Below are positions 500 through 11,778 of a stretch of DNA of 11,778 nucleotides, piece by piece. Positions within the stretch are counted from its first letter, which is position 1. The number at the start of each line of letters is the position of its first letter. The notes beneath the pieces are model-generated. The model had not been told where the DNA came from. It made no database searches and saw only the letters and a list, made by a program, of their open reading frames with translations. The DNA is from Candidatus Altarchaeum sp. (lineage in GTDB: Archaea; Altiarchaeota; Altiarchaeia; Altiarchaeales; Altiarchaeaceae): contig JAGWDQ010000030.1 of assembly GCA_018260615.1 (NCBI GenBank), forward strand, positions 1 to 11,778. The letters run 5' to 3'. The position numbers and the translations under genes were made by a program.

Positions 500-1141
500 T
501 TGATAAAAAAATATTGGCATCTATTGAAGTTTGCGGGTAACGAAATTTTGGAATGGACTGATTTTAGTAATATGGGGATTCGTGGACCTTATGCATACAC
601 ATTAGATATTCAAGCGGTAAAAAAAGCAATCCAAGACAAAGATATGGATTTCTTTGAAGAAAAATTCAAAAAAAGTTATGAAAAACAATATCAAATAATT
701 ATAGAATCTGCAAAAACAACACTTATGAGAGACGGTTTGGATCAGGCAATTGCCAACGCAATCGTAGGCGAAGCAAAATCAAGAAACTACAAATCAACCG
801 GCTTCATAGACGAAGAACAATTCATTTGCATGGCAATTGAATGGTACTCAAAAGATATTGGAATTGACTGGAACAAACTTGCAGATAAATGTTTAGGAGA
901 GAGTGATGTGAAAATATTTAATCCAAAAAACACAGAAAAAATTTTAAAAATTTTGGGGCAAATGAAAGAGAAACCAAAAGAAACAGCGAATTACATAAAT
1001 AAATTGATAGAAGAAAACTTTGGAGGGGAATTCAAAGTTGACGAGAAATGGATGACTCAAATTTTAAATCAAGTAATTGATGTTGTAAAAGAAGCAATAA
1101 ATAAAAATTTAGAATTAGTAATTTGTCAAACATATGAATGA
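500..1141 (+). CDS. Hypothetical protein (start may be the ATG at 572, MGIRGPY)
   Basis: 213-codon ORF with Lys/Glu/Ile-rich composition like its neighbours. No confident family. Stop TGA 1139-1141 overlaps the start of repeat A. Confidence 0.7.
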   Translation: MIKKYWHLLKFAGNEILEWTDFSNMGIRGPYAYTLDIQAVKKAIQDKDMDFFEEKFKKSYEKQYQIIIESAKTTLMRDGLDQAIANAIVGEAKSRNYKSTGFIDEEQFICMAIEWYSKDIGIDWNKLADKCLGESDVKIFNPKNTEKILKILGQMKEKPKETANYINKLIEENFGGEFKVDEKWMTQILNQVIDVVKEAINKNLELVICQTYE

Positions 1142-1286
1142 AAAATTTATAAAAGATGCAAAGGAAATTTTAATTAAGAAAGGGGTTAAGGTTTTGCAGT
1201 TTGTGACGCATTATCCAAAATTTGAGTGCGTTAATTTAAATTTATGCTTGGAAAAGAAAGAAACTCAAAAAATATTTAAAAGTTGA
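1134..1286 (+). pseudogene. 50-codon mini-ORF, remnant of the radical SAM C-terminus
   Basis: Translates MNEKFIKDAKEILIKKGVKVLQFVTHYPKFECVNLNLCLEKKETQKIFKS*; compare YEKFIKEVKEILIKKGVKVLQLVTHFPKFECVNLNQN* at the end of ORF 8473-8940. Confidence 0.7.
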
Positions 1287-1324
1287 AAAGTAATTTGTAT
1301 TTATAACATAAAATATAATATGGC
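1138..1324 (+). repeat. Repeat A: radical SAM gene 3' end plus 'long tail', running to the ATGGC of the next gene
   Basis: 1138-1241 matches 8828-8931 at 98/104 nt. 1160-1276 is identical to 6623-6739 (117 nt). The terminal ataacataaaatataatATGGC is shared with repeat C. Confidence 0.95.
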
Positions 1325-1919
1325 TAAAAATTTAAAACCACCAGAGGACAAAATTTTTTGGAAAAATTTGTGGAATAAAATGAAAAAAAGAAATGTGAAG
1401 GACTTTAGAATTTCGCAAAAGGATATAAATGGATTGTCTGACGGAGATATGATTGCAGCAGTAATACTGCCAATCTGGCCATCCGGTATTGAAGAAGACG
1501 AGTTAGATCGTATTTCACAGGGAACGCCAGGGCAGAGAGCATTGTACTGCATTACTCTTTTTATGAGGGAAGTTAATAATGGAGGAATTGAACAATTTTT
1601 AAGGAATTCCAGCGGGATGTACATAAACGAGGTTTTGAAGGGGTTGGACCTGGTTGGCGCGAGAAAAGATCTTGAAATAGTAAAAGAGGCATTAAAAATA
1701 TTTCCTGATGGCGAAGTTCCAATTGATTGGGATGAAAGAGACGAGATGCTTGATGAACAACTTGAAAAACTTGGAATTGCAGAGATTGAATATTTTGATA
1801 AATTTAATGAAAAATTGTTTGGAGAGGAAAGATTTTATCCTTTATTCATTGAATATATAAAAAAACACGAGGATGAATTCTTTTATGATGCGGAACAAAA
1901 AAAGCGAGGTGAAAAATGA
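1320..1919 (+). CDS. DUF4375 / DMP19-like domain protein
   Basis: Motif GQRALY...EVNNGGIEQFLRNSSG.Y..EVLKGL.LVGA is characteristic of the DUF4375/DMP19 family (recognised by eye). Confidence 0.75.
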   Translation: MAKNLKPPEDKIFWKNLWNKMKKRNVKDFRISQKDINGLSDGDMIAAVILPIWPSGIEEDELDRISQGTPGQRALYCITLFMREVNNGGIEQFLRNSSGMYINEVLKGLDLVGARKDLEIVKEALKIFPDGEVPIDWDERDEMLDEQLEKLGIAEIEYFDKFNEKLFGEERFYPLFIEYIKKHEDEFFYDAEQKKRGEK

Positions 1920-2674
1920 AAGCTGAAAAGCATAATGATTTGGGAGTTTTGTACTACGAATCAGGCAATTTTGAGGGGGTGGAAAAGGAATTCAGAGAGG
2001 CAATACGATTAGCTCCAAATTATACCGAAGCACATTGTAATTTAGGAATTTTACTGCAAAATTTAAAACAATACGATGAAGCAGAGAAAGAATACAGAGA
2101 AGCAATAAAGCTCAATCCAAATCTTGCAGAAGCACATTATAATTTAGGAAATTTATTGACAAATTTAAAACGCTATGACGAAGCAGAGAAAGAATACAGA
2201 GAAGCAATAAATCTCAATCCTGAAGTTTCTGATGTGTGGAGTGGCAGAGGTAATGTACTTGAAGAACTTGGAAGGTATAAAGAAGCATTTGAATGTTATA
2301 ACAAAGCCACAGATATAAATCCGGACAATGCCAGCGCATGGAATAACAAGGGCGTATTGCTTGAAACATTTGGAAGAAGGTATAATGAGGGAATTAAATG
2401 TTTTGATGAAGCAATAAGAGCAGATCCGAATAATGTTATGGCGTGGTGTAATAAAGGTGAGGCACTTAAACAACTTAAAAGATATGAGGAAGCGATAGAA
2501 TGTATCAACAAAGCTCTGAATATAGATCCAAATCTCGCCGAAGCATGGTATGTTAAAGGTCTCATATTTAAAGCTCTTAAAGGGCTCGATGAAGCAATGC
2601 AATATTTTGACGAGGCAATAAAACTAAATCCAAAATTCGGCAAAGGACGGCTTCATCCGAAATTTAACAGATGA
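1916..2674 (+). CDS. Tetratricopeptide repeat (TPR) protein
   Basis: About seven 34-aa repeats such as AEAHYNLGNLL...YDEAEKEYREAIKLNP and ASAWNNKG...CFDEAI..DP. ATGA overlap with the upstream gene. Confidence 0.93.
   Translation: MKAEKHNDLGVLYYESGNFEGVEKEFREAIRLAPNYTEAHCNLGILLQNLKQYDEAEKEYREAIKLNPNLAEAHYNLGNLLTNLKRYDEAEKEYREAINLNPEVSDVWSGRGNVLEELGRYKEAFECYNKATDINPDNASAWNNKGVLLETFGRRYNEGIKCFDEAIRADPNNVMAWCNKGEALKQLKRYEEAIECINKALNIDPNLAEAWYVKGLIFKALKGLDEAMQYFDEAIKLNPKFGKGRLHPKFNR
2027..2220 (+). repeat. 102-bp-period tandem duplication of one TPR unit
   Basis: gaagcacattgtaatttagga...gaagcagagaaagaatacagagaagcaataaagctcaatcc (2027-2118) recurs at 2129-2220 with high nucleotide identity. Confidence 0.85.
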
Positions 2675-4566
2675 GAAAAATGAAATTTAATAAAAATTTT
2701 ACAATAACAGGAAGCGGGCTTGTTTTGAAAAAGCCGGTTTTTTATAACAACAAATGCGGGATACGATTCGGTCTCGGCGAAAAAGAGAACTCGGACATCA
2801 ACAGATTCATTGAATGTTTTTCAAACACAAGGAGATTATTTGAGTTGATCTTCCAAAACAGCAATGAAACTTATATTTTGCTTGAAATATTTGACCGTAA
2901 AAAAACAAAATCAGCTAATCCAAAAGGACTCATAGAACTGAAGAAAATGGGTTTTGTCCCGGACAAAAATTTTAAAAGAAGGACGATGTATCATAAAGAT
3001 GAAGATTCCTATACATACCGCTACCTTTTCAAAGAGCAAAAAGAAAGCCCGAACATTGATGTTTTGTTCCGGGCAATACTTGGAAGCGACCTCGGAATAA
3101 AGCCAACCGCAGGGGTTGATGCATATTTCATTGACGAAGCGGGAGAATTGCTTTTTCATCCGTATGATGACAGGGGATGTGATATTGTTTCGTCTGATGA
3201 AAAAAGGATAATACCCATATACGAAAAATTAAAAAAGGATAAGCAGGATATTCAAAGTATAGGTTACAGGAATAAAGAATATGTCCACGGCTGCGAACTG
3301 TGTAAATATCTTGACGTTGATACAGCAAGTGAGATAGAGTATTACTGCCCCCTGATTGATGGGATGATTTGCGAGACGCACTGCGCAGAGATGCCAACTC
3401 ACGCGGGAAACAAAAACTATTGTAAAGAAACGACAAAAGCTGTAATGGATATGCTTGCTGGAAAGAACAAACCAATAACGATCGAGGAAATTGAAGAAAA
3501 ATGCAGATGCTGGAAAGTTGAAAAAACAGAAAAGATGAAGAAAAACAATAAACAAGAACTACTGGAAAATATTAAAAACCCCAAAAAAGTAGAATTCAAA
3601 ATACCTAATGGCTGGGTTAATTCCAATTTCCTGCATGAGATTAATATGTCAGATGTTGTTGAATATATTGACAGAGGATGTGATAAATTGGATTTGACAA
3701 CATATTTTGGTGAAGATGTTCTTTTTATTGGACTGCCCGAGGGAAGCCATAAGGCGGGGATATCAGTAGATTGGCTTCCTCAATATGATCTAAAGGGTCG
3801 TTTTGTTTGTCAGATTGTTGTAGAATCTACCCTTCAGGAGCACGCACAAGCTATCTGGGATTATCCGCTTGAACAAGAGGAGTTCAAAACATGGCAGGAA
3901 GTCCGCGATTGGGTCAATGTGTGGATTGAGAAATTAAAAGATATGCCTGAAACTACAGAGTATGGCGAGATAATGACTTATCTGGATTATAAGTTTAAAC
4001 GAGATTTAAACAGTTCCATATTTCCAATAGAACATGATGTGCGTATCAGATTTGGATTGGGGGGCGATTATAAAAATTGCCGCGATGATAGGTTAAACCA
4101 AGCGTATGAAAGGTCAGTCACATTATTTGAAGATGTTTTTACAAACAGCGAAGATGAATTGTGGTTATTCATGAATGAATGGGACACAGACAAACATAAT
4201 GATTATTTTTATAAGCAAGTTGATAAACAGAATAATGATTTCATTTCGCGAACCGTTTCTCAGGGAGGGTATAGCGCACGTCTTCACACTCAAAAGTTTA
4301 TAAAATTAAAATTAAGTCAGGTGAACTACAAAAATATTTTAAGGGGAATAGCCAATCTGGAGCAGGGAAGAGAACCAAAGGTTGCACAGAGAATCTGGTT
4401 TATAAATTTCAAAAAAGATATGGTGTTTTATATGTGCAATGATGAAGAATGCTTAGTTTATTCGGATGATCCTGAAAAAATAAGGCACATCTATGAAAAA
4501 AGGAAGGAGTGGATTGTGGATGATTGGAAAAAGGAAATTGATGAAATATTCGGAGAAAATAATTAG
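2671..4566 (+). CDS. 631-aa multi-module protein with DUF3885-like domains at both ends
   Basis: N-terminal IRFGLG...LFHPYDDRGCDIVS...IYEK and C-terminal IRFGLG...VFYMCNDEECLVYS...IYEKRKEWI fit the DUF3885 pattern. A Cys-rich segment and a third unrelated segment lie between them. Confidence 0.7.
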   Translation: MRKMKFNKNFTITGSGLVLKKPVFYNNKCGIRFGLGEKENSDINRFIECFSNTRRLFELIFQNSNETYILLEIFDRKKTKSANPKGLIELKKMGFVPDKNFKRRTMYHKDEDSYTYRYLFKEQKESPNIDVLFRAILGSDLGIKPTAGVDAYFIDEAGELLFHPYDDRGCDIVSSDEKRIIPIYEKLKKDKQDIQSIGYRNKEYVHGCELCKYLDVDTASEIEYYCPLIDGMICETHCAEMPTHAGNKNYCKETTKAVMDMLAGKNKPITIEEIEEKCRCWKVEKTEKMKKNNKQELLENIKNPKKVEFKIPNGWVNSNFLHEINMSDVVEYIDRGCDKLDLTTYFGEDVLFIGLPEGSHKAGISVDWLPQYDLKGRFVCQIVVESTLQEHAQAIWDYPLEQEEFKTWQEVRDWVNVWIEKLKDMPETTEYGEIMTYLDYKFKRDLNSSIFPIEHDVRIRFGLGGDYKNCRDDRLNQAYERSVTLFEDVFTNSEDELWLFMNEWDTDKHNDYFYKQVDKQNNDFISRTVSQGGYSARLHTQKFIKLKLSQVNYKNILRGIANLEQGREPKVAQRIWFINFKKDMVFYMCNDEECLVYSDDPEKIRHIYEKRKEWIVDDWKKEIDEIFGENN

Positions 4567-4578
4567 TGAACGAACCAA

Positions 4579-5388
4579 ATGAAAAAAATGAACGAAAAAC
4601 AACTAAAATATAGGGTCATTGAAAAGTTAACGGGATTCTTGAATTATGATAAACCGTCAAAACAAAACATGATCGGATCGCCAGAAGTGAATAAAGTAAT
4701 CAGGATGATATTTTCCCCCGTGTTAAGAGAAAATGGATTTTCTAGTTTCCTGACCAGAAATAACTGGGGTTGGCACGAACATTCAATATGGGTGTTGAAT
4801 ATTAACTCGGTTGGAAATTATTTTTCTCAAGTAACCGGATGGCCTCCGATGTCTATCGTCGTTAATCTTGGGGTCTATTATGATTTTATTCCTGAAGAAT
4901 TCCCGGAGCACATAGAAAATCGCATTAAGAAAAATAAAGTCGGCAGGTTAATTCCAAAAGAATATGAATGTCATGCGCGTGCAAGCTTATTATGTACTTT
5001 GGATCAATCAAATTTAAAAAAGAATTTGAGTAATCCCGCCGAGACGAAAAGAAGGGATATATGGTGGGTAAAACCAGACGGCAGTAATGTTGAAGAGGTT
5101 GTAACCAACATCAAGGATTCATTTTTGAACGGTAATGTAACTTCGTTCGGTCCTTATAATGAAGATATTTCTTTGAGCGGAGTTGAATGGTTTAGGAAGT
5201 TGAGCGATTTAGAGTATGTCTTTAACGCATTTGAAGACAGACAGGATTACTATAAAGCCGCATTTTTTGCAAAACATTTTGGCTGCAAGGATAAACTTAA
5301 AGAATACGGCGAGAATTTTCTGGAAGAAGCAAAAAAGATTGGGGGGCATGATTTAAAGATCATACAAAAAGAATTAAACGAGAAGTAG
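4579..5388 (+). CDS. DUF4304-like domain protein
   Basis: SPVLRENGF...IWVLNINS...IVVNLGVYY resembles the DUF4304 N-terminal pattern (recognised by eye). Confidence 0.55.
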   Translation: MKKMNEKQLKYRVIEKLTGFLNYDKPSKQNMIGSPEVNKVIRMIFSPVLRENGFSSFLTRNNWGWHEHSIWVLNINSVGNYFSQVTGWPPMSIVVNLGVYYDFIPEEFPEHIENRIKKNKVGRLIPKEYECHARASLLCTLDQSNLKKNLSNPAETKRRDIWWVKPDGSNVEEVVTNIKDSFLNGNVTSFGPYNEDISLSGVEWFRKLSDLEYVFNAFEDRQDYYKAAFFAKHFGCKDKLKEYGENFLEEAKKIGGHDLKIIQKELNEK

Positions 5389-5392
5389 AAAA

Positions 5393-5947
5393 ATGATAAT
5401 CACAAAATTTGACGATATCCCAGAGGTTCAAAAAGCAAAGATAACCCTTTTTGAAAATCCCGCAGGAGGGATTGAAACACATGCTGAGTTATCTCCCGAC
5501 GGAAGGGAAGGTAAAGAATGTAGTACTACCGGAAAACTCTTTTGCATAGACAAAGAAGAGAATTTCGCGGAGTTTGAGGACTACGGGTCGGCAGGGTACG
5601 ATTTTCACAAAACAAATTTAAAATTTCCTGTTGATGCACCAGCCATTAACCTGAAATTTGAACGATACCTTACCGACGAACACGGCGATGAGATACCTTC
5701 CGGGGATACAATCCATCTTGACAAAACCAATAAAATACTTATGTACGGCTTTGTCGGAAGTGCGGTTCTCGATTACATCACACAACCACTGAAGTACTAT
5801 CTTATTGCTAAGAATGTTGCGGTTAGGATAGATGCCAGAGGAATGCTGATTGAGATAATAATGCAATTAGAAGATGAACATATTCGCGAGATTGAAAGAA
5901 TTATAGGGGATGATATCGTGGGATGGAAAGATGATCCGACAGACTAA
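5393..5947 (+). CDS. Acidic hypothetical protein, 184 aa
   Basis: Intact ORF 4 nt after the upstream stop. No family recognised. Confidence 0.65.
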   Translation: MIITKFDDIPEVQKAKITLFENPAGGIETHAELSPDGREGKECSTTGKLFCIDKEENFAEFEDYGSAGYDFHKTNLKFPVDAPAINLKFERYLTDEHGDEIPSGDTIHLDKTNKILMYGFVGSAVLDYITQPLKYYLIAKNVAVRIDARGMLIEIIMQLEDEHIREIERIIGDDIVGWKDDPTD

Positions 5948-6002
5948 CGGCTTTGTTATGGAGCAAAATATCAGGACAAATGTGTTAAATTTAATCAACA
6001 TT

Positions 6003-6130
6003 AAAAACAATTATGAACATAACCGAAACCCTCTATGTAAAATCAGGAGTTAATGTCTTGCAGTTGGTAATTCATTTTCCGAAATTTGAATGTATAAATT
6101 TAAATCAAAACTAATAAAAATATATTATGG
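6003..6130 (+). repeat. Repeat B: short YdeI-5' / radical SAM-3' chimera
   Basis: 6003-6050 is identical to 10974-11021 (48 nt). From 6051 it is a diverged copy of the radical SAM 3' end (8878-8940), ending tcaaaactaa...attATGG. Confidence 0.93.
6013..6114 (+). pseudogene. 33-aa in-frame chimeric mini-ORF (not in the ORF track)
   Basis: MNITETLYVKSGV|NVLQLVIHFPKFECINLNQN*: YdeI-family N-terminus fused to the radical SAM C-terminus. Confidence 0.8.
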
Positions 6131-6531
6131 AAACAAAAACAAAAAATTTAATCGGAATCGGGATTTTGGCAATAATCTCAATAGTTACGGTCGTTTTTGT
6201 ACTTTACCATGGGTTTTTTAAAAATGGGGTATTGCCTGCTATGGCATTATTTGTTTTGGTATTATTGTTGCTTATTCTTTTCCCCTTAATACCGTTATTA
6301 AAAAAGCGGCAAACGCCCATATCAAAAGAGAAACAAGCAAAAAGTCAATTGGCTGTTGGTATAGCATTTATTGTTTTTGCGATAGTATGGTTGATATCAT
6401 TATTTATATCAGCTGGCGGATCTCATATCTTCTACAGTCTTATGGCGATTTGTTATGGTATGCTTGGAATATTTTATATTTTTCAGTATCTAAAATATAA
6501 AAAACAAAAGAAAGACGAAAACACAAAATAA
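6127..6531 (+). CDS. Small integral membrane protein, about 4 TM helices
   Basis: Four hydrophobic stretches and a basic tail. Shares ME.K..IGIGI and SKE.QAK with ORF 9639-10040. Confidence 0.8.
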   Translation: METKTKNLIGIGILAIISIVTVVFVLYHGFFKNGVLPAMALFVLVLLLLILFPLIPLLKKRQTPISKEKQAKSQLAVGIAFIVFAIVWLISLFISAGGSHIFYSLMAICYGMLGIFYIFQYLKYKKQKKDENTK

Positions 6532-6536
6532 AAAGG

Positions 6537-6799
6537 TAAACAATTATGGACATAACCGAAACCCTCTATGTAAAATCAGGAGTGGAATGGCGAAAGTGGC
6601 TGGAGAAAAATCACAAAAACAAAAAGGAAATTTTAATTAAGAAAGGGGTTAAGGTTTTGCAGTTTGTGACGCATTATCCAAAATTTGAGTGCGTTAATTT
6701 AAATTTATGCTTGGAAAAGAAAGAAACTCAAAAAATATTAAAGATTGAAAAGTAATTTATAGTTATACAACACATAAATAACATAAAATATAATATGGC
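6537..6799 (+). repeat. Repeat C: long YdeI-5' / radical SAM-3' chimera with 'long tail'
   Basis: 6537-6704 equals 9454-9621 at 167/168 nt. 6538-6633 matches 10976-11071 at 93/96. 6623-6739 is identical to 1160-1276. Confidence 0.97.
6546..6755 (+). pseudogene. 69-aa in-frame chimeric mini-ORF
   Basis: MDITETLYVKSGVEWRKWLEKNHKNKKEI (YdeI-family start) then LIKKGVKVLQFVTHYPKFECVNLN (radical SAM end) then LCLEKKETQKILKIEK*. Confidence 0.8.
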
Positions 6800-7532
6800 A
6801 AATACAAAAATATCCGGCAAAAAAATAGAAAGACAATATGCGTTAATAGAAGAATACTATGAAAAATATCTGAAAAAATACGGCGTTAAAATGCCCGGAT
6901 TACATAATAAAGATGGCAATTTTACAATGAACGGATTAGTCCTTGTTTATCTGTCTTTTGGATATCCAAAAACAAAAATTGTATCTAAGACGGAATTAAC
7001 AAATTTTATAAGAAATTATTATCCCGAAGTTAATGATGTTCAGCAAGCAAGACATTTAGGTGCTCAGGATGGCTGGTGGATTGTAGCAGGTGGAAGAGAT
7101 AATATAGTGCTAAAAGTGAAAAGAGGATATTATCAGCTTTATACATTAGAGCAACCTTACCCAGGCTTTAAAAAGGGGCATAGAATCACAGATGCGGGAG
7201 ATTGGGAAGAATTAAAAGCACGATATGGTTACAGATGTGCAACCTGTGGCTCTCGTGAAGGAGAACCTAATTTTCATTGGCCGGGAACAAAAACAAAACT
7301 TCAGAAAGCACACATGGATTCGAATAAACCATTGATACCCGGCAATATAATTCCACAATGTCAAAAATGCAACAGGGCAGATAGAAACAGATGGATATAT
7401 GATGAAAAAGGAAGAGTTATAAAATTAGCAAATGCTTCTTTTGTTAGAAATTTTGATAAAGATGTAAGAATAAAGATATACAGAATACTTTATGAAGAAT
7501 TTAAGGGAAAAAACCCTAACACGATAAAATGA
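6795..7532 (+). CDS. HNH (beta-beta-alpha-Me) endonuclease, probable Type II restriction enzyme
   Basis: CATC...AHMD...N...CQKCN zinc-binding HNH pattern. Coupled by an ATGA overlap to a DNA methyltransferase. Confidence 0.8.
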   Translation: MANTKISGKKIERQYALIEEYYEKYLKKYGVKMPGLHNKDGNFTMNGLVLVYLSFGYPKTKIVSKTELTNFIRNYYPEVNDVQQARHLGAQDGWWIVAGGRDNIVLKVKRGYYQLYTLEQPYPGFKKGHRITDAGDWEELKARYGYRCATCGSREGEPNFHWPGTKTKLQKAHMDSNKPLIPGNIIPQCQKCNRADRNRWIYDEKGRVIKLANASFVRNFDKDVRIKIYRILYEEFKGKNPNTIK

Positions 7533-8464
7533 AAAATAATGACTTTATTAATAAAATAATTACGGGTGATGCTTTAGAAGTGTTAGCAAAAATTGAAGAT
7601 GATTCAATAGATGTTGTTCTAACGGATCCTCCTTATTTTTTGGATAAACTTGATAATAACTGGAAATATGCGGAAGTTCCTGACAAAAAATATTGTATTG
7701 TAGTGAAATCATTACCTCCCGGAATGAAGTTTGACAGGCAACAAGGTATAAATCTTTATAACTGGTTTTTAAATGTGTCTAAGGAATTATATCGGGTCTT
7801 AAAAAAAGGCGGATTTTTCTTCTCTTTCTCAAGTCCCAGATTGTACCATAGGATGGCAAGTGCTGTTGATGATGCCGGCTTTATGGTTAGGGATTGTTTC
7901 GTATGGATTTACACTCAAAACCAGCCAAAAGCAATGGGTCTGAATCATTTTATAGATAAGTTGGATATTGGCAAATTTGCAAAAGAAGAATTAAAGAAAA
8001 AACTTTCCGGCTGGAAAACACCGCAAATTAAGTCATGTTTTGAGCCGATTATTGTGGCTCAAAAGCCCCCGGACAAAACATTCCTGGAAAATATAATGAA
8101 CAACGAAGTTGGACTTTTTAATACAAATATAAAAGTTGGTGACAATATGTATCCTTCAAACATTCTGACAATTGACCATATCAGCGAAATTATGGATAAA
8201 AGTTTTTTAGTGGGAAAACCAACAAAAAAAGAAAGGGGAAATTATAATTTTCATATGACTGTAAAACCCGTAGAGATATGTGAACATCTTATTAAACTTT
8301 CCGCTTTTTCAAAAGATGCTGTAATTTTAGATCCGTTTATTGGAAGCGGAACAACTGCTATTGCTGCAAAAGGTCTGGATAAAAATTTCATCGGAATTGA
8401 AAGCAACCCCGAATATGTAAAAATTGCTTTAAAACGATTAGATGACATACAAGGTAAATTATAA
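7529..8464 (+). CDS. Beta-class amino (N6-adenine or N4-cytosine) DNA methyltransferase
   Basis: Motif IV DPPY near the N-terminus, H.TVKP, and motif I DPFIGSGTT near the C-terminus give the beta-class order. DPPY favours m6A. Confidence 0.92.
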   Translation: MKNNDFINKIITGDALEVLAKIEDDSIDVVLTDPPYFLDKLDNNWKYAEVPDKKYCIVVKSLPPGMKFDRQQGINLYNWFLNVSKELYRVLKKGGFFFSFSSPRLYHRMASAVDDAGFMVRDCFVWIYTQNQPKAMGLNHFIDKLDIGKFAKEELKKKLSGWKTPQIKSCFEPIIVAQKPPDKTFLENIMNNEVGLFNTNIKVGDNMYPSNILTIDHISEIMDKSFLVGKPTKKERGNYNFHMTVKPVEICEHLIKLSAFSKDAVILDPFIGSGTTAIAAKGLDKNFIGIESNPEYVKIALKRLDDIQGKL

Positions 8465-8940
8465 AATCGGATTTGGTATTGAGGGATATTGCTCTTTTTA
8501 AAAAATTTGAAAATTTAAGAGTTGGATTGACAATAAACGGATTTAGTGGAAAATCAAAAGAATTATTTGAACCGAACTCGCCGGGCAACGAGGCGCGACT
8601 GCACGCTTTAAAAATTTTGAATGAAAACGGAATTAAGACATACGGATTCATAAGTCCGGTTATTCCAGGTCTGATTGATTTGGAAAATTTAATTGAAAAT
8701 TCAAGAAATTTCGTAGATTATTACATTGTTGAACTGCTGAATTTAAATGCTGCGGGATATGAATTTAAAAAATTGTTGATGGGAAATTATCCGGAAAGTT
8801 ATGAAATTATGACAAACAAAGAGCGGTATGAAAAATTTATAAAAGAGGTAAAGGAAATTTTAATTAAGAAAGGGGTTAAGGTTTTGCAGTTAGTTACTCA
8901 TTTTCCAAAATTTGAGTGCGTTAATTTAAATCAAAACTAA
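8464..8940 (+). pseudogene. 5'-truncated SplB-like (COG1533-type) radical SAM gene, C-terminal half only
   Basis: KSDLVLRD...VGLTI...FEPNSP...RLHAL..L.ENGIKTYGFISPVIPG is the family C-terminal pattern. The CxxxCxxC-containing N-terminal half is absent; there is an in-frame stop at 8455-8457 and homology begins at the MTase stop. Confidence 0.85.
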
Positions 8941-8952
8941 AAAATAATATGG
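8828..8952 (+). repeat. Repeat D: radical SAM 3' end in its longest native context, 'short tail'
   Basis: Source-like copy of the 3' half of repeats A, B, C and E. 8850-8946 matches 9540-9636 with 5 mismatches. Confidence 0.95.
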
Positions 8953-8965
8953 AGGATAAAAAAAT

Positions 8966-9436
8966 ATGAATCTAAATATTATAGGTGTAAAGAAGGGCCA
9001 TGTAATGTCCTCGGCAATTATGGCGATTACGGGTCTTATCATCGGATTATTAACAATGCCCGCTGAGGCAACAGTATTGTTAAAAACATTGGATGGGATG
9101 GCTTTTCCTGTTTTAGAAGTTATGAATGTTTTTCTAATAGATTTTCCAATGTCTATACTTGCGGCCGTCCTCTTTACACTTATGAATAAAAATGCGAAAA
9201 TTAAGGACGGTATAATATGTGGATTCTTATTTCTCATAATCATAATTTTTCTCATATTTTCTGTAGGAGTATTCACAGGAATGGCAGAACCTATAGCAGA
9301 TACTGCAATAAAATCAAGCCATCTTTTTGGTTTTGCATTTCCGATATTCTGTTTGATATTTTTACTGTTTGACTTTGGAGTTTGTGTATTGGGGGGAATC
9401 TTAGGCATTACCATTATGAGAGAGATGAAAAAATGA
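8966..9436 (+). CDS. Integral membrane protein, about 4 TM helices
   Basis: 156 aa with four hydrophobic segments; ggagg at 8951-8955 is a possible ribosome-binding site. No family recognised. Confidence 0.8.
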   Translation: MNLNIIGVKKGHVMSSAIMAITGLIIGLLTMPAEATVLLKTLDGMAFPVLEVMNVFLIDFPMSILAAVLFTLMNKNAKIKDGIICGFLFLIIIIFLIFSVGVFTGMAEPIADTAIKSSHLFGFAFPIFCLIFLLFDFGVCVLGGILGITIMREMKK

Positions 9437-9453
9437 TATAAGATTTAAAATTT

Positions 9454-9642
9454 TAAACAATTATGGACATAACCGAAACCCTCTATGTAAAATCAGGAGT
9501 GGAATGGCGAAAGTGGCTGGAGAAAAATCACAAAAACAAAAAGGAAATTTTAATTAAGAAAGGGGTTAAGGTTTTGCAGTTTGTGACGCATTATCCGAAA
9601 TTTGAGTGCGTTAATTTAAATCAAAACTAAAAAATATTATGG
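9454..9642 (+). repeat. Repeat E: long YdeI-5' / radical SAM-3' chimera with 'short tail'
   Basis: 167/168 nt identical to repeat C up to gttaatttaaat, then caaaactaaaaaata as in repeat D. Confidence 0.97.
9463..9630 (+). pseudogene. 55-aa in-frame chimeric mini-ORF (not in the ORF track)
   Basis: MDITETLYVKSGVEWRKWLEKNHKNKKEILIKKGVKVLQFVTHYPKFECVNLNQN*. Confidence 0.8.
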
Positions 9643-10040
9643 AAAATAAAAAAATCGGAATCGGAATAATCGTTGTATTTGTATTTAGTGTTTTTGCACT
9701 ATGTGTTTTTTTTAATAGTTGGGTAGCATCACATTCTAAAGCATTGCTTGTTGTGGCTCTGCTTGTACTTTCCCTTCTTCTTTTATTATTGTTGTTTAAA
9801 GGAAAGCGAAAAACTTTATCAAAAGAAGAACAGGCAAAAAGACTCAAATTTAGTGGTATTTTCTGGGTTGGCTTTGGCATAATATACCTAACATTGCCCT
9901 TTGTTTTCGGAGAAGAAATTCGTTTATTCAATTATGTAATGGCGGCGGCATCTATTAGTATGGGGGTCGCTCATTTGTGGCAGAGTCACAAATTAAAAAA
10001 CGAAAATAATAAAACAAGTGAGGAGGTGAAACAAAAATGA
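9639..10040 (+). CDS. Small integral membrane protein, about 4 TM helices; distant homologue of 6127-6531
   Basis: MENKKIGIGI...KRKTLSKEEQAK versus METKTKNLIGIGI...KRQTPISKEKQAK; similar length (133 vs 134 aa) and hydropathy. Confidence 0.8.
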   Translation: MENKKIGIGIIVVFVFSVFALCVFFNSWVASHSKALLVVALLVLSLLLLLLLFKGKRKTLSKEEQAKRLKFSGIFWVGFGIIYLTLPFVFGEEIRLFNYVMAAASISMGVAHLWQSHKLKNENNKTSEEVKQK

Positions 10041-10987
10041 CAGACCTAAACTCACTCGGACTTTTAATCCCGGTTTTTGCGGGAATTTTAGTATCATTTA
10101 CCCCGTGCGTAGCCGTGCTTTTCCCGATAACTTTTTATAGGTTTATGTCTGATGCGGGAACGGATTACAAAGCATATTTCTTATATGCCCTCGGCTTCCT
10201 TTTCACATTCACAATCGCGGGTTTCTTATTTCAGCAACTCTTTGAATCAAGCATACAAAACGGAATAAAACTTACAATAGCCATTGCGCTTATTATGCTC
10301 GGCACGCTGCAATTTTTCAATCGCGTAAATCCATTGAATCTGCCCGTAATAAAAAACACATTTGTTTTCGGTGCGATTTTTGCCGTAGCGATCGGAATAA
10401 ACCCATGTGCCGTGCCGTTTACGGGTCAGGTATTTGCATTGTCATCGGGCGGCGAAATTTTTATAAATCTATTCCTATTTGGCATCGGAATTTTAATCGC
10501 GCCGACACTGCTTTTAATTTTCGGAAACGAATTAATCTCGCACAGCAGAAAAATAACCGAAAAAATGCACTACATTGATAAACCGATCAGCGTCTTACTT
10601 GCGGCGTCGGGAATTTATATGGGGCTTCACATTTTAGAACTCACACAACTTGATTTAATATTATCCTCAATTTTAATTTTAATTTTATTGCTTGTTATCC
10701 TGAAAATATTTTTTATAGGAAATTCAATTAAAAATTTGTTAACGCTCCCGCGAATCCTGCTCGTCGCATCCGTTTTTGTAATGTGGTTCGTAATTACTTA
10801 TCACTGCTACGGGATGGTGTCGCCGGGAGGGGATGAGGCGGTGTGTTCAATGACATGTTTCGTGTGTCAGCGATGCTTGGTGTTGTTTGGCGTGTCGGTT
10901 ATTTTAGGGGTTGCGGGGTCGCTGTTGCTGGGGTGGTATGAAAATAAAAATAATAAAAATAATAATTCAAAGCAAAAACAATTATGA
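10037..10987 (+). CDS. ccdA: CcdA/DsbD-like transmembrane thiol-disulfide protein with a C-terminal extension
   Basis: Two Pro-Cys catalytic motifs, SFTPCV..LFP and INPCAVP, in a multi-TM protein. Assignment is family-level. Confidence 0.75.
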   Translation: MTDLNSLGLLIPVFAGILVSFTPCVAVLFPITFYRFMSDAGTDYKAYFLYALGFLFTFTIAGFLFQQLFESSIQNGIKLTIAIALIMLGTLQFFNRVNPLNLPVIKNTFVFGAIFAVAIGINPCAVPFTGQVFALSSGGEIFINLFLFGIGILIAPTLLLIFGNELISHSRKITEKMHYIDKPISVLLAASGIYMGLHILELTQLDLILSSILILILLLVILKIFFIGNSIKNLLTLPRILLVASVFVMWFVITYHCYGMVSPGGDEAVCSMTCFVCQRCLVLFGVSVILGVAGSLLLGWYENKNNKNNNSKQKQL

Positions 10988-11071
10988 ACATAACCGAAAC
11001 CCTCTATGTAAAATCAGGAGTGGAATGGCGAAAGTGGCTGGAGAAAAACCACAAAAACAAAAAAGAAATTT
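10974..11071 (+). repeat. Repeat F: 5' end of the intact YdeI-family gene
   Basis: Source-like copy of the 5' half of repeats B, C and E. Confidence 0.95.
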
Positions 11072-11550
11072 GGCTGCTATTTTATAAAAAGCACACTGGC
11101 AAACCCAGAATCTCCGATGAGGATGCGCTTGAAGAAGCATTATGTTACGGCTGGATAGACGGTATTCAGAAACGGATTGACGATGAGAAATTTACCCGAA
11201 GATTCACTCCGAGAAAACCAGCAAGCAAACTGTCGGAAATGAATAAGGAATACATTCGCAAACTCGTCAAAGAAGGCAAAATGACTGCTTTCGGATTCAA
11301 TGCGGTTTCAAAATTTTTTGACAAATCAAAAGACCAGGATGATAAACTAACTATTGCCCCCGATATACTTAAATTGCTGAAAGCAGATGAGCATGCATGG
11401 GAAAATTTCCAAAATTTTTCGGAAAGTTACAAAAGAGTGCGGATTGGCTATATTGAAAATCGCAGGGGTCGTGATGAGATGTTTCAAAAGTCCCTGCTGC
11501 ATTTTATAAAGATGACTGCAAAAAACAAGAAATTCGGAAGAATACAATAA
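10984..11550 (+). CDS. YdeI/OmpD-associated (OmdA, bacteriocin-protection) family protein
   Basis: WRKWLEKNH....IWL.FYKK...ALEEALCYGWIDG...RFTPRK..S..S..N plus a C-terminal A..NF..FS.SYKR..IGYI segment are typical of this family. Confidence 0.92.
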   Translation: MNITETLYVKSGVEWRKWLEKNHKNKKEIWLLFYKKHTGKPRISDEDALEEALCYGWIDGIQKRIDDEKFTRRFTPRKPASKLSEMNKEYIRKLVKEGKMTAFGFNAVSKFFDKSKDQDDKLTIAPDILKLLKADEHAWENFQNFSESYKRVRIGYIENRRGRDEMFQKSLLHFIKMTAKNKKFGRIQ

Positions 11551-11778
11551 GCAAAAATTTACGAAAAATTATAATCAAAAAAGAAAAAATATGCAGGTAT
11601 TTTTAAGTATTTTTAATTATTAATGGAAAAATTTTTCATGTAAAATTTAAAATAATCTTATGACAAACAATAAACAAATCACTATTTTTGAAGGTCAGAA
11701 AATTCGCCGGCGTTGACCTTTATCCCATTAGCACGAAAAAAAAATAAAAAAATGAGGGTCACCCCTATTTGTTTGTCC

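Follow-up and report, generated by a model that had tools for sequence, protein, structure and literature searches.

Stacked accessory-gene cassettes and chimeric border-gene spacers in a radical SAM-YdeI slot of Candidatus Altarchaeum

Layout of the array

The DNA analyzed here (the window, 11,778 nt in total) is the entire contig C30 (JAGWDQ010000030.1) of a Candidatus Altarchaeum sp. genome (Altiarchaeales), and holds an array of accessory genes punctuated by end fragments of two border genes, a radical SAM (rSAM) gene and a YdeI/OmdA-family gene. The genome is a fragmented metagenome-assembled genome (MAG; 2.2 Mb, 148 contigs, 33% GC, 87% complete), and archaeal markers (ribosomal protein S8e, TATA-binding protein (TBP), eIF2-gamma and family B polymerase) were found on neighboring contigs. 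Six co-oriented cargo blocks were identified, punctuated by five rSAM 3′-end copies and three YdeI 5′-start copies. An earlier note on this sequence had listed five blocks; those five were confirmed, and block 0, at 57-1137, makes six. By open reading frame (ORF) calling, repeat finding and alignment, the repeats and chimeras were found where that note had put them, and spacers B, C and E were confirmed as fusions of a YdeI start to an rSAM end. The features are as follows (coordinates, strand, description).

1-56, no strand: dispersed repeat at the contig end, a probable mobile-element end (52-57 nt at 98-100% in 5 other contigs, four times at a contig end)
57-1137, no strand: cargo block 0, a 128-aa ORF (8-394, minus) and a 213-aa ORF (500-1141, plus), family-less (no Pfam, NCBIfam or PADLOC match)
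1138-1305, plus: remnant A, last ~104 nt of rSAM with a type-2 tail and no YdeI start (94% to remnant D; 93.7% to the intact rSAM gene of sister contig L106, positions 695-883)
1320-5947, plus: cargo block 1, DMP19-like, TPR, double DUF3885, DUF4304-like and 184-aa unknown genes (Pfam)
6003-6121, plus: chimera B, YdeI leader and first 27 coding nt (48 nt), then the last ~60 rSAM coding nt with a type-1 tail (alignment)
6127-6531, plus: cargo block 2, a 134-aa multi-pass membrane protein (ORF; distantly homologous to the 133-aa protein in block 5)
6538-6785, plus: chimera C (joint J1), 8 nt of YdeI leader and first 88 coding nt (96 nt), then the last ~82 rSAM nt with a type-2 tail (alignment)
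6786-8464, plus: cargo block 3, a type II restriction-modification (R-M) cassette of a 245-aa putative endonuclease and a 311-aa N4/N6 DNA methyltransferase (Pfam N6_N4_Mtase, 4.8e-34; PADLOC MTase_II, 3.6e-46)
8463-8947, plus: remnant D, displaced rSAM 3′ part (gene position 330 to end) with a type-1 tail and no YdeI start (alignment; its initial 71 nt also occur at the end of contig C9)
8966-9436, plus: cargo block 4, a 156-aa membrane protein (ORF, no family match; precedes J1 in sister contig L112 as well)
9455-9636, plus: chimera E (J1 again) with a type-1 tail (98% identical to C over 176 nt)
9639-10987, plus: cargo block 5, a 133-aa membrane protein and a 316-aa multi-pass membrane protein (ORFs; same block after DUF3795 and J1 in sister contigs L114 and L115)
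10984-11550, plus: intact YdeI/OmdA-family gene that bounds the slot on the right (Pfam OmdA, 5.8e-10; 97% nt identity to the YdeI of L106)
11721-11778, no strand: second dispersed repeat at the contig end (55-58 nt at 98-100% in 5 other contigs, at or near ends)

The repeat copies matched one another by BLASTN with E-values of 1e-16 to 1e-82. Within the 2.2-Mb genome the half-repeats were confined to the window contig, except for the 5′ half of the intact rSAM gene at the end of C9, so they are not the genome-wide dispersed element that the earlier note had considered. In chimera B, positions 6003-6050 were 100% identical to the YdeI start and 6045-6123 were 84% identical to remnant D (rSAM part, 6045-6121), with the joint (J2) at AGG(A/G)GT. 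In chimera C, 6538-6633 were 96.9% identical to the YdeI start and the rSAM part was 6623-6785; J1 lies in AAA(G/A)GAAATTT. The corresponding parts of chimera E were 9455-9550 (YdeI start) and 9540-9636 (rSAM end). All three fusions are in frame (B, C and E, 33, 69 and 55 codons), and the 69-aa chimera ORF was not on record in an exact look-up. At remnants A and D the final gene of the preceding cargo terminates at the edge of the rSAM sequence or within its first few bases.

The rSAM stubs start at gene positions ~330, 660, 692, 695, 718 and 738 and are ~60, 82, 104, ~107, ~130-150 and ~485 nt long, with YdeI copies of 48 or 96 nt, and short microhomology only was seen at every joint. At their right ends all rSAM copies lose similarity at the same point, after AATTTAAAT, which is the gene end. 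Two kinds of tail were found past it, type 1 (...LNQN and a stop, then a few bases) and type 2 (...LNLCLEKKETQKI...). Remnant A and chimera C have the last 77 nt identical and different left partners, and chimeras C and E have a common joint and different tails; this mosaic of tails and joints is what homologous recombination within the stubs predicts.

The array had been described as flanked by its own two border genes. This held for YdeI, which is intact in the window, and not for rSAM: the intact gene is absent from the window, and its 5′ half ends contig C9, behind ThiI, overlapping remnant D by 71 nt. A whole rSAM gene (268 aa) is present on L117, a MEGAHIT contig from the sample of the window, where it is followed by ~190 nt and then by another dispersed repeat; the intact rSAM of L106 is 282 aa. 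The repeat behind the intact gene in L117 runs on into contig C45, which has a long ORF (at least 396 codons). NCBIfam identified the protein as an SplB/PA0069-type CxxxCxxC radical SAM enzyme, and the 3′ end of the gene is conserved, not variable. The two intact alleles (L106 and L117) are ~96-97% identical along the whole gene, whereas remnant D was 89.6% (L106) and 88.5% (L117) identical to them, with 98% identity at gene positions 330-500, 81-82% at 501-700 and 90% at 701-798. As D is diverged to this extent while the intact alleles are so alike, the duplicate copies would not have been made in place at insertion. One member of the duplication looks resident and one imported, a pattern that fits a donor plus recipient origin.

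The cargo had been called unrelated, which does not hold throughout: the first gene of block 5 and the single gene of block 2 encode distant homologues (30% identity, E 3e-7). The stop codon of the 213-aa ORF of block 0 sits on the joint with remnant A. Block 1 consists of five co-oriented genes, three of the four junctions between them being 4-nt overlaps or 4-12 nt gaps, and the last gene follows after a short gap. An internal 102-nt tandem duplication (76% identity) in the TPR gene (window 1982-2185) equals one TPR unit. Block 1 may hold immunity-type families, as DMP19, DUF3885 and DUF4304 are known from immunity-gene clusters. The endonuclease and methyltransferase ORFs of block 3 overlap by ATGA. 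The endonuclease label of the 245-aa protein is putative and comes from its position and a Cys-rich HNH-like motif only; it had no Pfam or NCBIfam match, and PADLOC and PDB sequence searches gave chance-level matches only. In block 5 the stop of the 316-aa gene overlaps the ATG of YdeI (ATGA). The 128-, 213-, 184-, 156- and 316-aa proteins had no match in PADLOC, NCBIfam or Pfam.

Cargo starts are alike, in an ATA(A/T)TATGG context (window 1303-1327, 6117-6142, 6778-6802, 8940-8955 and 9629-9654), and cargo 1 and the R-M cassette have their whole leader in common up to ATGGC. This context is either the usual start context of an AT-rich genome or a sign that joints are favored at start codons. 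A promoter function of the stubs was considered, as every cargo start has a TATA-like TTTAAAT in the rSAM end ~17-34 nt ahead of it; this distance is not consistent from copy to copy, and the idea was set aside as speculation.

Array order and strain variation of the slot

The public runs holding the stretch, X1 and X2, are 2016 groundwater metagenomes from a single study; next to nothing of the stretch was present in run X3. The order of the array was the same in four assemblies, the window and three made with other software, at 99.9% identity. The others were an ENA MEGAHIT contig labeled k141 (apparently k = 141), a JGI contig and an NCBI MAG contig, and the window's own assembly is SPAdes-like. 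All blocks were at equal depth in run X1 (2960-3200, ~3000). The YdeI and rSAM parents share just ~2-11 nt at the chimeric joints and, because of this, the YdeI::rSAM joint cannot be created by a k-mer assembler. The array order is genuine and no collapse of strain variants, a possibility that had been raised beforehand. All assemblies break at the same two places, which are high-copy repeats common to 10 other contigs, mostly at or near their ends; at the left window edge, the run data gave loose ends at 52-58 with many alternative continuations.

Sister contigs came from the second sample (run X2; L106, L109, L110, L111, L112, L114 and L115). L106 (46 kb) and L109 hold, contiguously, TBP, TrpD, MazE/PIN, ThiI, intact rSAM, R-M, a 469-nt rSAM remnant, flavodoxin/80 aa/DUF3795, YdeI, tRNA-Gly, a metallo-beta-lactamase (MBL) hydrolase and PolB. 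This arrangement is the chromosomal frame of the slot, and L106 has rSAM upstream and YdeI downstream of a variable interval, as the reading of the earlier note required. From 6624 the window follows L106 colinearly, at 98%, through the intact rSAM end, R-M and D. L114 and L115 read DUF3795, J1, cargo 5 and YdeI, which is the L106 arrangement with one extra unit. L112 carries cargo 4, J1, a 291-aa gene, an rSAM stub (from gene position 692), a flavodoxin remnant and YdeI. In L110 an rSAM fragment is followed by MazE/215 aa/CPBP protease, an rSAM stub (last ~130-150 nt) and the start of R-M, and in L111 R-M and D are followed by a different tail and different DNA. J1 was thus found between four different neighbor pairs (C and E in the window; L112, L114 and L115), the R-M cassette with three different left neighbors and D with three different right neighbors.

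Depths in run X2 differed strongly, at ~190 for blocks 1 and 2, ~2700 for R-M, ~80-88 with many single-nucleotide polymorphisms for blocks 4 and 5, and ~3200-3400 for a YdeI variant. Because of these depths, and because the sister contigs carry other combinations, the blocks are independent alleles at the strain level. The slot consists of two conserved flanks, between which the strains carry different whole-gene cassettes, and is without mobility genes (window, L106, L112, L114 and L110). The proposal that alternative alleles of one slot had been stacked was therefore borne out, with X2 depths ranging from ~80 to ~2700 and other cargo or combinations on the sister contigs. A possible empty slot was seen in L117, where the intact rSAM gene has no R-M behind it but is followed by other DNA and an insertion sequence (IS). 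In one low-depth Logan contig the rSAM end is connected to the YdeI leader across 12 nt, the shorter side being no more than 24 nt long; this is a hint of an empty slot and nothing beyond that. Joints in run X2 that go back from 9630 to 6117 and from 11715 to 8920 were considered as circles, and are better read as the arrangements of other strains; Logan contigs are unable to show circles or starts.

The R-M unit (6786-8464) is 1.68 kb long and holds only the putative endonuclease and the N4/N6 methyltransferase, without mobility genes. In L106 its flanks, the intact rSAM 3′ part and remnant D′, form a 469-nt pair at 90% identity. In another genome (contig L118) the same R-M cassette, with 85% nt identity to window 6786-8462, stands directly behind an unrelated 321-aa gene, and is followed by a 512-nt copy, 96% identical, of the 3′ end of that gene. 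Comparison with L118 favors insertion of the R-M/D unit directly behind the intact rSAM gene, and the R-M cassette is independently mobile in the same duplication style. Methyltransferases of the same 90%-identity cluster were found near SepF, GrpE and DnaK in other assemblies, including GCA_017973935.1, which are presumably other Altiarchaeales. In L118 (5265-6011) the putative endonuclease is split into ORFs of 93 and 151 codons and the methyltransferase is intact, which looks like decay towards an orphan methylase.

Local repeats across the genome (45-800 nt, within 12 kb) comprised 225 direct vs. 22 inverted pairs, a tenfold direct excess. At least two further arrays with varied cargo and gene-end stubs in between were found in the same genome (C82:5900-17400 and C104:4300-15000). 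The stubs are 5′ fragments of a deacetylase gene in C82 and of another gene in C104, and the stub gene closes the array. Cargo in these two arrays included AAA-type ATPases, AlbA_2/Schlafen-like proteins and secreted proteins.

A metagenome scan for YdeI returned 80 loci, all at ≤66% identity and none of the 80 with an rSAM homologue within 10 kb, and a search with the intact rSAM protein against species-level genomes returned 41 loci, all at ≤66% identity and none of the 41 with YdeI nearby. Since neither border was accompanied by the other in these scans, the rSAM/YdeI slot appears to be a feature of this lineage and no widespread system. In same-genus genomes (G001-G003) YdeI (45% identity) and an rSAM fragment occur in other contexts. 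A Methanophagales MAG (L142) has a 132-codon 5′ fragment of an rSAM homologue (4753-5148) 2.2 kb upstream of the intact gene (7376-8149), which may represent the same duplication style in an unrelated archaeon.

Further observations were made at and beyond the right border. In sister strains YdeI is interrupted a few codons past its start (L109:11700-11760, L107:470-540) by a transposon-like element that is bounded by 17-nt terminal inverted repeats (ATATCCGTTAACTTAAG), has apparently duplicated ~11 nt of target (CCGAAACCCTC) and carries at one end a gene of the DUF6788 family; the end of this element is also seen in run X2, as a loose end at window position 10994. The DNA downstream of YdeI is strain-variable, with Bro-N, HhH-GPD and HEAT genes in L108 and L113, and in the window (11650-11720) a short ORF start (MTNNKQITIFEGQKIRR...) 3′ of YdeI, cut by the terminal repeat, resembles the Bro-N gene start at the same place in those two contigs. 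L106 (10700-11053) has a tRNA-Gly(TCC) gene ~420 nt downstream of YdeI, and ahead of it lie two partial copies of the 5′ end of this tRNA gene, each then followed by a ~45-nt repeat; these copies may be the scar of integrations at the tRNA gene.

Origin of the stacked cassettes

The array is probably explained by additive insertion without a dedicated recombinase, followed by homologous shuffling at the stubs, in a strain-variable rSAM-YdeI slot. In different cells this slot would be occupied by R-M, the DMP19/DUF3885/DUF4304 set, small membrane proteins, the flavodoxin block or the MazE/CPBP block, as co-oriented gene sets. In a first step, DNA from another allele or chromosome copy would pair with one conserved border, and its other end would be joined illegitimately, at a microhomology of a few bases, either within the border gene on the other side or where the resident cargo ends. 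The outcome would be a net insertion with a remaining rSAM 3′-end stub, which amounts to a displaced gene end or to a target duplication of great and variable length, and a breakpoint inside YdeI would turn that stub into a YdeI-start::rSAM-end chimera. In a second step, stubs of 80-480 nt would serve as portable homology arms, and equal or unequal homologous exchange of a stub with an intact border or with another stub would swap, add or delete cassettes. Exchange between stubs would explain why J1 is found twice in the window and in four contexts. Microhomology is present at the joints, and the duplicate copies are diverged as those of a donor/recipient pair would be. We infer RadA-type pairing plus microhomology end joining as the enzymology, and likewise the source of the incoming DNA (transfer between strains vs. 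sister chromosome copies) and the direction of growth.

The earlier note had proposed that the interval was circularised or tandemly multiplied. The joining of the right border to the left was supported; a circle would be one route to this joint among several. Had the joint arisen in place, by microhomology-mediated tandem duplication of rSAM end, cargo and YdeI start or by re-integration of a circle through a single crossover, with cargo later replaced via the stubs, the chimera would be exactly the novel join expected; C and E carry one joint, so that a single founding event with homologous spread would suffice, and blocks 2 and 5 start with homologous genes. We nevertheless regard such an origin as unlikely, because no contig examined holds a unit twice with the same cargo, remnant D is ~10% diverged from the intact copy, the R-M cassette has the same duplication style at an unrelated locus, and the stubs without a YdeI part (A, D and the ones in L110 and L112) need separate insertion-like events.

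Site-specific accretion, in which a recombinase encoded elsewhere (integron-like, tyrosine or serine) inserts at the rSAM stop codon, much as islands do at the 3′ ends of tRNA or protein genes, and the stubs are att duplications, would account for rSAM similarity ending at the same base in all copies, after AATTTAAAT, and for the co-orientation of the cassettes; the tRNA-Gly gene of L106, preceded by partial copies of its own 5′ end, can be cited in its favor. It would leave unexplained why stub lengths vary (~60 to ~485 nt) and why there are two different YdeI breakpoints; the left ends of the stubs showed no core in common, and the right end that all of them share is simply the natural gene end. 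Integrase, transposase and other recombinase families were found neither among the window ORFs nor among the called genes in 20 kb of L106; no inverted repeats, hairpins or attC-like elements were found at the block boundaries, and the ATAAC...GTTAT pattern gave one chance-level match, inside the TPR gene. These searches agree with the original description of the window as free of recombinases and of the repeats as not palindromic, and site-specific accretion is accordingly judged quite improbable. Least credible, to the point of being very nearly dismissed, is an assembly artefact in which strain variants of one slot were chained through common border sequences. The MAG is in 148 pieces, its contigs overlap others by 55 nt at their ends (taken as a mark of SPAdes-type assembly with k = 55) and the second sample does contain several strain variants of the slot side by side, but the chimeric joints require reads containing them, with parents sharing far less than any k used, and J1 recurs on independent contigs with other neighbors. 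The same order in SPAdes-like, MEGAHIT, JGI and NCBI assemblies and the uniform depth in run X1 also speak against an artefact.

Several points weigh against additive insertion with subsequent shuffling. The assembly of the window does not link the array physically to the intact rSAM gene, and IS-like repeats break both ends; since such repeats end every assembly on both sides, the linkage of the array to intact rSAM rests on synteny with L106. The strain variants all come from two samples of one study, and the evidence is in the form of contigs, which leaves room for circles, within-cell tandem heterogeneity and polyploid heterozygosity. The similar ATA(A/T)TATGG cargo starts, together with the common end of rSAM similarity, leave room for a site preference. 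Homology-facilitated illegitimate recombination (HFIR), whose expected product the first step would give, is documented in naturally transformable bacteria and not in archaea. Finally, the co-orientation of 8/8 cargo blocks is not predicted by random illegitimate insertion and needs an added assumption, either selection for co-transcription or orientation inherited through allele exchange.

Relation to known systems and significance

The earlier note knew of no named system with this architecture. Precedents were found in long target duplication, HFIR and sequential-displacement arrays, and several other systems resemble the locus in part. Minimal mobile elements of Neisseria are sites between conserved genes that hold different cassettes in different strains, exchanged by homologous recombination in the flanks and without mobility genes. 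Publications on these elements are Saunders & Snyder, 2002 and Snyder et al., 2004, both listed in PMC1538595. The locus has the same conserved flanks, alternative whole-gene cassettes and lack of mobility genes, but whereas minimal mobile elements are described as carrying one cassette per site, which is replaced, the alternatives here are stacked with border-gene chimeras between them. On this comparison the locus appears to behave like a minimal-mobile-element-like slot made additive through insertion with long target duplication. In the recombinase-associated (rAID) arrays of Bacteroidales, a linked tyrosine recombinase accompanies repeat-bounded immunity genes. The likeness to integron and rAID arrays is functional only (an ordered, co-oriented and strain-variable stack of small accessory cassettes with defense- or immunity-like content); unlike these and the integrase-less integron arrays (CALIN), the locus has no integrase or other recombinase and no attI/attC or palindromic site, and its joint positions are variable. 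It differs likewise from tandem accretion of integrative elements at a gene 3′ end, in having no integrase and in stubs that start at six gene positions.

Insertion of R-M units with long target duplication has been described (Furuta, Abe & Kobayashi, 2010; PMC2853133). As in those cases, the R and M unit is <20 kb, has no mobility gene and is accompanied by a direct target duplication of >30 bp (~470-485 nt of rSAM 3′ end here, 512 nt at the other locus), and the variation is seen only by comparing strains. The locus differs in its archaeal host, in cargo that also includes non-R-M genes, in insertions that recur at one slot and pile into an array, in duplications some of which span both borders and so give chimeric spacers, and in copies that are 4-10% diverged.

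Experimental demonstrations of HFIR are known only from transformable bacteria and from conjugation in E. coli. The process is described in de Vries & Wackernagel, 2002, Prudhomme et al., 2002 and Meier & Wackernagel, 2003, as cited in PMC5361080. Common to both would be a single conserved border that can act as anchor, joining of the other end at microhomology, of 3-10 nt in HFIR, and net gain of foreign DNA beside the anchor; the present case, unlike HFIR, is read from the products alone. We know of no DNA uptake route for Altiarchaeales. HFIR-like sequential displacement has been proposed for type VI secretion system immunity arrays of Vibrio cholerae (Kirchberger et al., 2017; PMC5361080), and the same logic for the displacement of Rhs C-termini (Jackson et al., 2009). 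The likeness to displacement arrays (Rhs, orphan modules of contact-dependent inhibition and Rhs loci, type VI secretion) is that an incoming module pushes older ones downstream, each keeping a stub of the conserved gene, and that homologous reshuffling occurs between strains. The anchor here differs, being an rSAM enzyme and not a polymorphic toxin, whose variable C-terminus comes with an immunity gene of its own; what is repeated is the conserved 3′ end of a gene for a housekeeping-type enzyme, the cargo is of mixed kinds, and the downstream border leaves stubs too. What is new is the archaeal, multi-cassette form with chimeric spacers from two borders; the underlying process is already published for bacteria.

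A wider reading, on which we would not rely and which is tentative at best, is that Altiarchaeales have a general, recombinase-independent mode of gene capture, in which stubs of gene termini act as self-made homology arms and any conserved gene pair could become an integron-like stack of defense and accessory cassettes; polyploidy or exchange of DNA in biofilms may promote such capture. If this were true, chimeric spacers of the downstream-start::upstream-end kind would be a diagnostic scar for finding arrays in other lineages.

At the level of the population, the locus is a clear case of accessory genes that accumulate at one slot, and are not merely replaced, without an integrase, in a lineage of uncultivated archaea that dominate some subsurface waters. 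The stubs would explain how a rare illegitimate event turns a replacement-type site into an additive, integron-like array that is then reshuffled by homologous recombination. Insertion with long target duplication, described for R-M systems of bacteria, would thereby apply in archaea and to cargo other than R-M as well, and the chimeric spacer provides a simple sequence signature that can be searched for to gauge the frequency of recombinase-free stacking.

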